Of a stretch of 64,000 nucleotides of DNA, positions 37,701 through 41,715 are shown piece after piece (the first letter of the stretch is position 1; every line of letters begins with the position of its first letter). The position numbers were made by a program, and so were the translations under genes. Origin of the DNA: Candidatus Bathyarchaeota archaeon (GTDB lineage Archaea; Thermoproteota; Bathyarchaeia; Bathyarchaeales; Bathycorpusculaceae). The DNA lies in assembly GCA_963772455.1 (NCBI GenBank), contig CAVYXJ010000009.1:1-64000 (forward strand), written 5' to 3'. The notes under the pieces are model-generated. The model saw only the letters and a program-made list of their open reading frames with translations, was not told the origin of the DNA and made no database searches.

Positions 37701-40308
37701 TTATTGTTTCTTTTTGATTGCAAATAAGATTGCTGCGCCAACTATTGCGATTGCGACGATGATTGCTATTACACCTGCAATTACGTATGTTGTCAATGTA
37801 TTGGTTGTATTATCAAGTGAGATAGGTTCTGGTGTTGCTATTATTGTTGGGGCATCGCTTACTGTTGCATAGGTGGTTGCCCATGAGTTTCCATAGGATT
37901 GGTCACCTGCAAAGGTTGCTGTAATTTTGTATTGTCCCGATATTGTTGGGTTCCATGCATAGGCAAAGTTACCTTTCTCGTCGCTGGTCACCGTGTTGAG
38001 GTGGAAGAAGTTGTTGTTTGGGTCAATCACATCAATTGATACTGGGACTCCTGTGACTGTTACGTTGTGGTAGAATCCATCAATTGGTCGTTGCATATGT
38101 AGAAACTCCATGTAGGTCGACATTGATTCTTTGGATACGCATGCTGCACCTGTTTGGGCTGGTGACTGGTCGAGGATAGTGCCTGATATTATTGCTGTTG
38201 TTCCTGCAGTAATAGCTGTTTGTGGGGCAGAAATTGTTGTTTGACTTTGTCCTACTCCAAATACGTACATGTTGCCATCGTATCTGTTATCATATGTTAG
38301 GTAGCCATCTGCAACTGCACCTGCTGATCCTCCGCCTGAAATATCCCATAAGTATTCGCCTGTAGTCGCGTTAAGTGCCCAAAGTCTCCAGCCTCTTGTG
38401 AGCGGCTCTGTTGGTGAATGTTCGCCGTTTGCATAATAGAGTACACCATCTGCGATTTGGGGTGAGTTACTAAAGAGCGTCATGGAAGGGTATGTTGCGG
38501 ATTCAAATGGAATGGCTGGTGTTGAGTAGTGCCAAACGATCTTGCCGGTGTTCCAGTCTAGTGCATAGAAACCTGCATATGAGAAGTCATAGATTAAGCC
38601 GCCGTAAGAAGCGATTGTGTAGGCTCCAAAATCTCCCCATGGGTATTCTTCGCCACCTACTTCACCGGGTTTAGCAGTTTGCCAAAGTAGTTGTCCTGTC
38701 TGTAGATTCCAACAGTCCCACCATCCACCGAGTACGCGTACGGTAACTTTTCCATGGTCTGCACAGAGGCCTGTGGGGAAGAAGATGTCGTTTGAGGTAA
38801 CGTTCCAAAGCAGTTGCCCTGTGGTTAAACTTGCAGCGGTCAAATACTGTCCAAGTGCATGACCTGCGCCTGCTGGTGTTATTGTAGCTGAAGTGACTGC
38901 AATGTTTGACTCAAAGTCTACTGAACCTAGACTGCTAAATGGGTAAGTTACGTTGCTTATTATTCTGGTGTTGAAGTCTGTGCTTGTTCCGGTTGTTGTC
39001 CAGTTTATGAGTTTATAACGGTTTGCACCTGCGGTTGCTCCAAGGTCTTGCACTGTTAATGCATAGGGGTCTTTGTACATGGTGCCTGAGCTTATTGGCA
39101 GCGTGATGTTTAAGGTGACTGCGCCGCTCCATGGATTGTATTTTATCATCCTTGATGATCCGATGTACACGAGCGAGTATGTGCCTGTTCCCTGACCAGT
39201 CTGTTCTGCGCCTGGTACTGAAGATGCGACTTGGTTAAACGTAATCACGGTCGGTGGCTGAGTTATGCCTGTTTGCTCCCAATAGACCTGCCCCGTGCGT
39301 ATGTCGTAGCATTGCCAGACGTTTACTGTCTGTGAATATGTTACACCGTTTATTGTTGTTGTCATTGGTTTGCTGATTGTTTGGTATGCTCTGCCTTGAA
39401 AGATTATAGTGGGAGTGCCTGCATAGGCGCCTTCGCCTGGGCCCACTGAACGATAGCCAAATTGTCCACCTGCAATGCCTGCTAATGCACCTTGTCTCAT
39501 CCAAGCAATGTGTGAAGTTTTAGGACCCTCCACGTATGGGGTGAATTTATAGTTGCTTGCGTATGCGTTGGTGTTTGCTGGCCACCCTTCACCGCCACCT
39601 ACTCCTGTGTAAGGAAAGTGTCCGCCTATGACCCACCATTCACGGTTTTCGATGGGTATGGGGCGGGTCCAGTAGTCTGTTGGAAGCTGCGCTGCAGGAT
39701 ATGAGTAGACTGGTTCTTGTTGTACTGTCAATGAAACTTCTGGACTGGTTGAAGCTTGGTACCAGGCTGATTGAAAGCTTGCTGCTCCGCCAAATCCCAT
39801 TCCACCTGTGCTGGTTCCTGGTGGGAGGTCTGCTTGAGTAGCATAGTATTTGCCATTGTAGTACCATCCTGCTTGTAAGTAATTGCCGGCAAAGTTGAAT
39901 TTGAATTTGTATATTCCTAATTGGTCTACACCATATTGAATCCATGCTGTGGCGTCTCCTTGATAGGAGTTTATTGGTCCGATGGTTTCAGTTGTATTGT
40001 CTGGTTTTGTTACTGTTATAGTATAACCTGAGAAGAAGCGTTGGTAAGCTATTGGTGGTTCAAGCCATATGTTGATTAGAACTGATTGACCTTGGCCAAT
40101 CGGGTTGGGACTGATACTGATGAATGCGGTTGTTGGGATTGTAACATTTGGGGTTGTGCCTTGGGGAGGTGCGGTTGGCCACGGTGTTAGTTGTGGGGCT
40201 CCTATTTGTTCTACTTCTGCATTCGTTGAAAAAGATACTAGATGCGATTGAAATCAGCATTATTACAAGAGACAATATTGCCAAGATTTTATTTCTAGTT
40301 GATTGCAT
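37701..40308 (-). CDS. PQQ-like beta-propeller surface protein, paralog 3 (~868 aa; +1 frameshift near 40230)
   Basis: Removing one T from the T5 run joins the signal peptide (40308) to SPNPIGQGQ...LPTDYWTRPI...GEHS...TM + KKKQ. Confidence 0.82.
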
Positions 40309-40533
40309 TTTTATTTCCTCATATATTGTTGGAAAAAAGAGCCAGATCTAAAGATAGAATACTCTCTCTCTCCATAACGCCGATTATTGGTTTTAATTGT
40401 TAATAAAAGGTATTGGAAAGTGACCACTGACGACAAAAAAAATCAAGAAAAATTGGCAGACAAAAGCAAATAGATTAGCTGAGATGTTTTAGAAAAAAGA
40501 AAAAAGAGAAATGAATGTGCCTACGCCGAGGTC

Positions 40534-40590
40534 TTATTTTTTCTTTGCTGGTGCTTTCTTTACTTCTTTTTTAGCTGGTTTTTTTGCCAT
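40534..40590 (-). CDS. 18-aa Lys/Ala/Pro-rich micro-protein MAKKPAKKEVKKAPAKKK (histone-tail/H1-like)
   Basis: Hand-translated ORF; GAGGT SD 8 nt upstream, TATA-like ttataaat at 40631-40638, T-rich tract downstream. Confidence 0.6.
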   Translation of the reverse strand: MAKKPAKKEVKKAPAKKK

Positions 40591-40702
40591 TTGAAATAAC
40601 CTCGGGATTCAATGTATGAGAGCTATTGGTATTTATAATTTGCTGAATTGAGGAGAAAACAGATAACAAAGCTTAATACTTACTTGAAAAGAAAAAGAGG
40701 CT

Positions 40703-40939
40703 GTGGATGAAGTCGCTATGAACGAATTAGAAATTTCTGTTGCTCCGATGCATAGAATATGCAAAAAAGCGGGAGCAAAAAGGGTAAGTGAAGAAGGAGC
40801 AAAAGAACTTGGAAAAATTCTCGAAGGGATTGGTGTAAAGATTGCAAAAGAAGCACTGGATTACGCGACATACGCTAAAAGAAAGACAATTAAAGTGGAA
40901 GATATCCAAATCGCTGTAAGAAAAGTTATGGAAAAATAG
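40703..40939 (+). CDS. Archaeal histone (HMf-type; start may be 40718)
   Basis: EISVAPMHRICKKAGAKRVSEEG...AKRKTIKVEDI matches the HMfA/B fold signature. Confidence 0.92.
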   Translation: MDEVAMNELEISVAPMHRICKKAGAKRVSEEGAKELGKILEGIGVKIAKEALDYATYAKRKTIKVEDIQIAVRKVMEK

Positions 40940-41057: not shown

Positions 41058-41715
41058 ATGAACGAATTCTCTCTTCATTCAGAAATAAAAAAAGCTTACT
41101 CGCTTCCTGGAGATCAATTTGAGGTTAAATTAGACAACTACATCGTCGATCTCTTGAGGGAAAATTTAGTAATCGAAGTTCAGACAAAGAATTTTTCAGC
41201 CCTAAAAGAAAAACTTCAAGTGCTTACTAAAAAACACCAGGTGAGGTTAGTCTATCCTCTGCCTGAAAGAAAGTTGATAACACATGTTACAAAAGATCAC
41301 AAAGTCCTAAATACTCGTAAATCCCCCAAAAAAGGAAAACTAACTGATCTATTTCGTGAGTTAGTCATGATTCCGCAAATGATCAGTGTAGAGAACTTTT
41401 CTTTAGAAGTTTTACTCATCGATGAAGAAGAGATAAGGTGCGACGATGGAAAAGGAAGTTGGAGAAGAAGAGGAGTCAGTATCGAAGACCGGAAGCTTCT
41501 GAAAATAAACAATCGAATTCTATTCCAAACCAAAGATGACTATCTCAAAATACTTCCTGAAAGCCTAAATGAAGTTTTCACCAATAGAGAATTAGCGAAA
41601 TCAGCAAAGATTTCAGTGAAGACTGCAAGGCAAATAACTTATTGTTTAAGAAAAAGCGGGATTGTTCAGATTAGCTGGAAAAAAAGGTAGAGAAATAATT
41701 TTTCAGTATGTATAG
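41058..41715 (+). CDS. PD-(D/E)XK nuclease-like protein with C-terminal HTH (probable +1 frameshift near 41670)
   Basis: SLH..IK, E....YIVD......IEVQT; C-terminal FTNRELAK...ARQITYCLRKSG; alternate frame LAGKKGREIIFQYV*. Confidence 0.65.

Follow-up and report, generated by a model that had tools for sequence, protein, structure and literature searches.

We analysed a stretch of 64,000 nucleotides (nt), hereafter the window, which covers positions 1 to 64,000 of contig CAVYXJ010000009.1 in assembly GCA_963772455.1 of a Candidatus Bathyarchaeota archaeon (Bathyarchaeia; Bathyarchaeales; Bathycorpusculaceae). It carries a micro open reading frame (micro-ORF) of 18 codons that lies head-to-head with an archaeal histone gene and encodes a lysine-rich peptide. 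Comparison with homologous loci indicates that this is very likely a real 18-codon gene, with its own TATA box, Shine-Dalgarno (SD) sequence and oligo-T terminator. We favour, at a probability of about 0.45, the reading that the gene is translated and that its product would be a free polycation working with the chromatin of the variant histone encoded next to it. The gene itself is well supported, whereas the mechanism, in which the peptide would serve as a tail detached from its histone, is only what we infer.

The peptide, MAKKPAKKEVKKAPAKKK, has nine Lys, four Ala and two Pro among its 18 residues, with two PAKK motifs, i.e., about 50% Lys and a net charge of about +8. Such a Lys/Ala/Pro composition is typical of linker histone H1 tails. 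It is rare among the small ORFs of the same assembly (2.45 Mb, 39.7% GC, with 31-35% GC in the micro-ORF region): only 2 of the 20,725 ATG-initiated ORFs of 12-45 residues combine at least 45% Lys with at least 15 residues, and the micro-ORF is one of them (the other, 20 residues at C5:25808-25870, reads MKLKVNMKKLKAKFVKKKEK and is found without an SD-like sequence upstream). A tblastn search of the genome with the peptide returned only the match to itself.

The signals around the micro-ORF are those expected of an archaeal gene (coordinates in Table 1). Its promoter block contains the TATA-like element TTATAAAT (ttataaat, the reverse complement of 40631-40638). The start codons of micro-ORF and histone are 127 nt apart, taking the conserved ATG at 40718 as the histone start (the ORF listing gives a GTG at 40703 as an alternative), and the two TATA boxes lie about 35 nt from each other inside a conserved intergenic block. 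The GAGG of the micro-ORF starts at -13, in agreement with the rest of the genome: upstream of the first ATGs of long ORFs, SD-like 4-mers are most frequent at -12/-13, and a 5-mer SD is present in 102 of 1240 windows, compared with 23 of 1240 in the controls. A scan of the locus for sigma-70-type promoters and hairpin terminators was uninformative for an archaeon. The preliminary description of the locus had placed the ORF where we find it, with the same peptide and lysine count, SD, TATA-like box and T-rich tract, and had read these as a complete expression unit sharing a divergent promoter region with the histone. All of this was borne out, and the TATA block, SD and T-tract are conserved in relatives.

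We then searched 120 genomes of the genus with a 156-nt probe comprising promoter, ORF and terminator, taking E values of 1e-10 or better as strong matches. The probe matched in 46 of the 120 genomes, several of which hold two to four copies (four in G048). A scan for short ORFs around histone loci had been proposed in the preliminary description, together with checks for synonymous-biased substitution and for disruption of the ORF in relatives. The first histone-based scan, of 40 relatives, found the micro-ORF conserved beside a histone in 7 further genomes, and the ORF is intact in all 30 loci retrieved from the genus. The family was then defined from these genus loci and from pattern scans of species genomes and of metagenomes, three sources that may overlap in organisms. 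The family filter required a short box after the stop codon, so that L092 (19 residues), L209 and L213, which lack it, were left out, as were non-family pattern matches (bacterial ORFs, long proteins). The resulting units, at least 92, carry at least 62 distinct ORF sequences. Among the 62 distinct ORFs in the matches listed, lengths differ by whole codons only (18 codons in 53, 17 in 8 and 15 in 1), translation starts at one fixed position with ATG in 31 and GTG in 31, and the stop is always TAA.

The codons vary as expected of a protein-coding gene. In the 29 distinct 18-codon sequences, 3, 5 and 10 sites are variable at codon positions 1, 2 and 3, respectively. All four third bases are used at Ala codon 2 and Pro codon 14, and the nine Lys codons end only in A or G (261 of 261). 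The pooled ratio of nonsynonymous to synonymous polymorphism (pN/pS) is 0.143 in the micro-ORF frame, the lowest of the six frames (0.28-6.4 in the other five), which is the synonymous bias for which the preliminary description had proposed a check. This pattern of substitution indicates that purifying selection acts on the peptide.

The choice of Lys codons shows a further regularity (window 40537-40587 and homologues). In 29 of the 29 distinct sequences, AAA is the second codon of each KK pair; AAG prevails at the first (55-76%) and is invariable at codon 16, whereas 76% of Lys codons genome-wide are AAA. This may reflect avoidance of long A-runs.

The histone encoded next to the micro-ORF aligns without gaps to HMfB, whose residue numbering we use. 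In a tree of 48 distinct histone sequences (one row of fewer than 70 residues was dropped), the 31 micro-ORF-linked histones form one clade with support 100/94. This clade, whose branches are longer, is nested among the near-invariant housekeeping histones of the genus. By this tree, the partner of the micro-ORF is a genus-specific, fast-evolving histone paralog, and not the housekeeping histone. We compared the residues to which the relevant passages of Henneman et al. 2018 (PMC6136690) assign roles in DNA contact and at interfaces. R10, G16, R19, T54 and D59 are retained in 31 of the 31 linked histones, which thereby keep the histone-fold DNA-contact residues R10, R19 and T54. At the dimer-dimer interface, for which the same passages give the pair H49/D59, D59 is constant and position 49 is split between His (16 of the 31) and Tyr (15). 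Of the same 31, 16 have Gly at position 51 and 15 have Lys or Arg there, and position 48 is occupied by eight different residues. The 10 housekeeping histones compared are all invariant at these positions. In the window histone, position 34 is Gly, position 49 Tyr and position 61 Gln.

Linkage between the two genes was counted in units with at least 700 nt of flank. A divergent histone adjoins the micro-ORF in 69 of 79 such units among the matches listed (29 of 30 genus loci, 9 of 11 contigs of species genomes and 31 of 38 metagenome contigs), so the head-to-head placement first described in the window extends to most of the family. Most pairs are about 125 nt apart, and distances of about 320 or 415 nt also occur. 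Where G019 holds two copies of the micro-ORF, the coordinates of both adjoin a histone match. Among 24 relatives from the genus, the 10 with a micro-ORF all have at least two histone matches, and 12 of the 14 without it have one. The linkage is real, though not obligatory, and a function in chromatin is plausible.

The genomic context of the pair varies. At 30 loci, the outer flanks of the cassette form 23 clusters on either side, and the left flank of the housekeeping histone forms a single cluster in 12 of 12 loci. In an alignment of 26 cassettes (L050, L056, L058 and L059 were excluded), conservation drops abruptly past the T-tract on one side and past the histone stop on the other. Because the flanks vary and conservation ends at the edges of the pair, the conserved relocating unit is the pair of about 450 bp. 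The micro-ORF/histone pair thus behaves as a relocating cassette, kept by a subclade of one Bathyarchaeia genus. We searched 20 neighbouring ORFs from 9 loci against Pfam for hallmarks of mobile elements and found no integrase or viral hallmark; these ORFs matched PIN, flavin reductase, DUF1512, ferritin, ECF, NAC, PfkB, HTH, DUF1385, GT87, TrmB and Mrr_cat, or no family. Of 30 loci, only 4 have a full tRNA gene at a distance of up to 1.5 kb.

Several relatives have fragments resembling a tRNA T-arm (GGTTCAAATCC with a 3' acceptor-like strand) some 70-330 nt downstream of the micro-ORF (L037 at ~1290-1330, L049 at ~1320-1350, L056 at ~1464-1490, and also L003). They are not called as full tRNAs by ARAGORN or Rfam, and may be partial tRNA copies at insertion sites. 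Several metagenome contigs (L211, L214, L234, L237, L239, L264 and L209) end inside or at the intergenic region of the cassette, a break that a repeated or polymorphic cassette in those communities would explain.

The cassette probably derives from the housekeeping locus. Its intergenic region aligns with that of the housekeeping histone, both TATA boxes included, and the divergent TATA box at the housekeeping locus serves an upstream gene of 197 codons. Because the two intergenic regions align, we propose an origin by duplication: the housekeeping histone would have been duplicated together with its bidirectional promoter, and the orphaned divergent TATA box would then have come to drive a new short ORF. 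The cassette may thus be a clean example of a new gene born downstream of an orphaned duplicated promoter.

Table 1. Features of the micro-ORF/histone locus in the window.
Feature	Position	Strand	Remarks
18-codon micro-ORF and TAA stop	40534..40590	-	encodes MAKKPAKKEVKKAPAKKK; frame kept in relatives
Shine-Dalgarno region CCGAGGT	40599..40605	-	GAGGT at 40599-40603, 8 nt ahead of the ATG
micro-ORF promoter block CAGCAAATTATAAATAC	40629..40645	-	resembles B recognition element (BRE)/TATA box; kept in 8/8 first loci and at least 90% in the 26-locus cassette alignment
post-stop box CCTCGG	40526..40531	-	exact complement of the SD box; predicted 6-bp stem enclosing the ORF
oligo-T tract TTTCTCTTTTTTCTTTTTT	40493..40511	-	likely archaeal terminator; left edge of the conserved cassette
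histone promoter block GATAACAAAGCTTAATAC	40662..40679	+	TATA-like; ~40 nt ahead of the histone ATG; conserved across cassettes
variant archaeal histone gene, 73 residues and stop	40718..40939	+	PF00808, E 6.7e-12; divergent to the micro-ORF
whole two-gene cassette, ~450 bp	40493..40939	.	from terminator to histone stop; 26-locus alignment
antisense 27-codon Phe-rich ORF	40511..40594	+	shares wobble positions with the micro-ORF; judged an unlikely product

Under the reading we favour, the peptide would be disordered and would bind electrostatically to DNA or another polyanion, much as the Lys/Ala/Pro-rich tails of H1, HupB or Ku do, though on its own rather than as part of a larger protein. 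It would modulate the compaction or the stability of chromatin containing the variant histone, which keeps its DNA-contact residues and varies at the dimer-dimer interface. A bolder and rather doubtful version is that a free-standing 18-residue 'histone tail' or micro-linker acts in trans with a dedicated, fast-evolving histone variant to tune the stability or compaction of hypernucleosomes, and that directly encoded polylysine micro-proteins may form an overlooked class of prokaryotic factors binding the nucleoid or polyanions, to which this family and a 21-residue analogue in Cytophagales would belong. The preliminary description had suggested such a 'detached tail'. The stable linkage to a histone stands (the 69 of 79 units given above), and a fused counterpart was looked for in two sets. 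Among the histone matches listed (150) from 301 Bathyarchaeia genomes, the 12 longest open frames contain no fused Lys-rich tail and are read-through of non-coding DNA. No tail-fused histone occurs among the best 120 of 765 database relatives, of which 119 have 73-79 residues and one, of 99 residues, has a C-terminal extension that is not Lys-rich.

Several observations weigh against the favoured reading, and most of them fit an alternative that we consider somewhat unlikely, namely that the peptide is real and selected and has a function unrelated to the histone, e.g., as a general binder of polyanions such as RNA, the ribosome or polyphosphate, or in another role. Ten of the 79 units among the matches listed have no adjacent histone, which also counts against the detached-tail proposal and means that the peptide can persist alone. 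One histone-less lineage (L050, L192) keeps a decayed remnant of the histone promoter, and in a sub-lineage with a distinct post-stop flank only the promoter-ORF-terminator unit remains; the promoter block of the micro-ORF stays in the units that lost the histone. Across 57 distinct peptide-histone pairs, the acidity of the peptide showed no covariation with the residue at histone position 49, with that at position 51 or with the charge of the histone. The histones checked include no tail-fused form, so there is no Rosetta-stone support. The adjacency may simply reflect the origin from a duplicated bidirectional promoter, since promoter homology accounts for it by descent. A comparable 21-codon poly-Lys ORF with a terminator exists in Cytophagales without a histone nearby (see below), and the Lys-rich AlgP associates with polyphosphate granules, according to PMC9239181. 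The distribution of the micro-ORF is also narrow, being confined to the genus in the searches made, and kin are not independent, so that all our counts overstate the number of independent events. Against a role unrelated to the histone, the pair stays together in most units in spite of the 23 flank clusters per side, and both G019 copies adjoin a histone match; a core ribosomal role is moreover unlikely for a gene matched in only 46 of the 120 genomes searched within a single genus.

The remaining alternatives do without the Lys-rich peptide, and we regard the non-coding, antisense and chance readings as much less likely than the two above. That the locus is an untranslated element, either a non-coding RNA from the divergent promoter or a DNA-level regulatory block of the histone in which the ORF is incidental, is improbable. 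It would agree with the absence of RNA runs carrying the stretch among the matches listed (all 23 are DNA contigs with small shares), which counts against the favoured reading as well, and the invariable AAA at the second codon of KK pairs hints at a constraint on nucleotides. The SD box and its post-stop complement could also form an RNA stem: CCGAGG is invariant in 58 of 58 aligned units, and the RNAalifold consensus of these 58 sequences pairs it with the post-stop box, which is present in 92 of the 92 listed family units but was part of the family filter. However, none of the 11 pairs of this consensus covaries, because both sides of the stem are invariant, and the predicted fold of the window RNA is no better than shuffles (z-score -0.92), which does not help the translation-gating role of the stem either. 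The post-stop box is clearly under constraint; by pairing with the SD box it may gate translation of the peptide. An untranslated element is further contradicted by the lowest pN/pS of six frames, by indels of whole codons only, by the swap of ATG and GTG at one position with a fixed TAA, by free third bases in Ala and Pro codons next to Lys codons restricted to A or G, and by an SD at the distance typical of the genome. No Rfam 15 family matched at gathering score in the window locus (L031), and across 10 loci there were only two tRNAs, elsewhere. Nor is the unit a mere regulator of the histone, since it persists where the histone is absent.

The reverse strand offers another candidate product, a Phe-rich hydrophobic peptide encoded on the plus strand (40511-40594) that might be a small membrane peptide; we think this very improbable. 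Its frame is open in 38 of 38 distinct units, and its pN/pS, 0.28, is the lowest after that of the sense frame. Because the two frames have their wobble positions in common, third-position variation alone cannot pick the strand, a further point against us. Yet its stop-to-stop length ranges from 26 to 76 residues, 8 of the 38 units have no ATG, and the A-tract, in which its promoter would need to be located, is where conservation stops. Substitutions that do not alter the sense peptide, namely at GCN codon 2 and between ATG and GTG at the start, cause Phe/Leu and Ile/Thr replacements in the antisense frame. All three signals (TATA box, SD and T-tract) are oriented for the minus strand. We thus take the Lys-rich sense frame as the product, because the start, stop and upstream sequence of the antisense frame are not conserved. 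That the micro-ORF is a chance ORF in an A-rich intergenic stretch is scarcely credible: the genome is AT-rich, and the region more so, but the composition is found in only two small ORFs of the assembly, and the conservation, codon pattern and signals contradict it.

We also considered whether the peptide belongs to a known class. Linker histones H1/H5 share the basic Lys/Ala/Pro tail and were rejected for want of the globular winged-helix domain; no folded domain is possible in a product of only 18 residues. A split tailed histone is argued against by the lack of fused forms among the histones checked, and a micro ribosomal protein (of the eL41, bS22, bL37 or Thx type) by the patchy presence of the gene within the genus. 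A leader peptide or upstream ORF was rejected because the micro-ORF has its own terminator, the conserved T-tract, and because the downstream genes vary, with flanks in 23 clusters among 30 loci.

The peptide resembles known basic tails in composition only. One likeness is to the C-terminal domain of linker histone H1, in the Lys/Ala/Pro content, the PAKK-like motifs, the presumably disordered polycation and the association with a core histone. The H1 tail is however about 100 residues long and attached to a winged-helix protein, whereas here 18 residues form a free-standing gene, and homology is not demonstrable for such low-complexity sequences. SPKK-type minor-groove motifs offer a further term of comparison. 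Protamines and the adenovirus core peptide mu are free peptides, some tens of residues long or shorter, that neutralise the charge of DNA; they come from eukaryotes or viruses and are rich in Arg, and mu is released by cleavage of a precursor. The micro-ORF peptide is likewise small, free and basic, but it is Lys-rich, archaeal and directly encoded. Archaeal histone paralogs of the 'capstone' type have altered tetramer or stacking interfaces. The linked paralog is similar in keeping its DNA-binding residues while varying at the equivalents of HMfB positions 48, 49 and 51.

In the passages of PMC6136690 and PMC11390915 searched, no accessory micro-protein gene is reported for such histone variants; the former also summarises the role of linker histone H1 in the part concerned. 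Tails with Lys/Ala/Pro repeats that bind DNA or other polyanions electrostatically are described for mycobacterial Ku, whose PAKKA repeats modulate DNA binding (PMC3553676), chlamydial Hc2 (PMC2848022) and AlgP (PMC9239181). The repeat pattern of the micro-ORF peptide, KKP(A/V)KK...KKAPAKKK, is of this kind. Those tails belong to folded proteins of at least 100 residues, whereas here the tail-like peptide is the whole product. Tailed archaeal histones are listed by Henneman et al. 2018 (PMC6136690), in the section concerned, for Heimdallarchaeota LC_3, Huberarchaea and Bathyarchaeota B23. The phylum of the window is thus among the few with tails, and in both cases a basic segment goes with a histone of altered multimerisation interface. 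The difference is that the basic segment is here a separate gene on the opposite strand, and that the linked histone, of 73 residues, is tailless.

Stand-alone poly-Lys ORFs are also found in bacteria. Many contigs of metagenome-assembled genomes of Cytophagales/Bacteroidota carry, among the matches listed, an identical 21-codon ORF, MAKKPAKKAAKKAKKAAKKKK (L072, L077, L081, L083, L097, L105, L107, L113-L115, L126, L139, L140 and L150), with a conserved upstream block and a hairpin-plus-T terminator. Its synteny is conserved: the nearer upstream ORF is the same in 8 of the 8 loci checked and the same two ORFs are present in 6, followed in 6 of the 8 by a gene with a Lys/Ala-rich N-terminus, with no histone nearby. 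It has no NCBIfam match and is absent from the protein collection. It shares with the micro-ORF the MAKKPAKK start and its free-standing nature, is likewise rich in Lys (about 60%), and differs in being bacterial, in its conserved synteny and in lacking a histone. The similarity is probably convergent, and suggests that stand-alone poly-Lys ORFs may be a wider phenomenon.

Outside the genus, a search of 151 genomes of the order with an 18-position profile of the peptide, which is insensitive given so short a query, returned only N-termini or internal stretches of larger proteins. The true matches were limited to G000 and G013, both in the genus; the others were rejected as homologues, being parts of larger unrelated proteins, with one doubtful 72-codon frame. 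Full-text literature searches gave no published description of such a peptide gene, on which supplementary histone catalogues could bear. Archaeal histones are mostly tailless, and the control of the size and compaction of hypernucleosomes is presented as an open question in the passages of PMC11390915 and PMC6136690 on the subject. If the favoured reading is true, a conserved polycationic peptide with a gene of its own, linked genetically to a variant histone, would represent a novel type of accessory to chromatin. The retention of the pair across many genome contexts, as read from these comparisons, suggests an overlooked accessory peptide of chromatin, and the case illustrates that sequence comparison by itself can reveal a gene of 18 codons that standard gene callers miss.

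The neighbourhood of the cassette in the window includes two other features. Downstream of the histone, an ORF of 210 residues (41058-41690, plus strand) has no Pfam match; of the 30 cassette loci, that of the closest relative (L032) alone has it as well, at 82% identity. On the other side of the cassette, the minus strand from 37701 to 40308 holds an ORF for a PQQ/beta-propeller surface protein of 699 residues (37701-39800) without an N-terminal signal-like segment, and a separate ORF of 82 codons (40060-40308) that opens with a hydrophobic signal-like stretch. The GC content between the two is coding-like, and they may be one gene that is frameshifted or mis-assembled.

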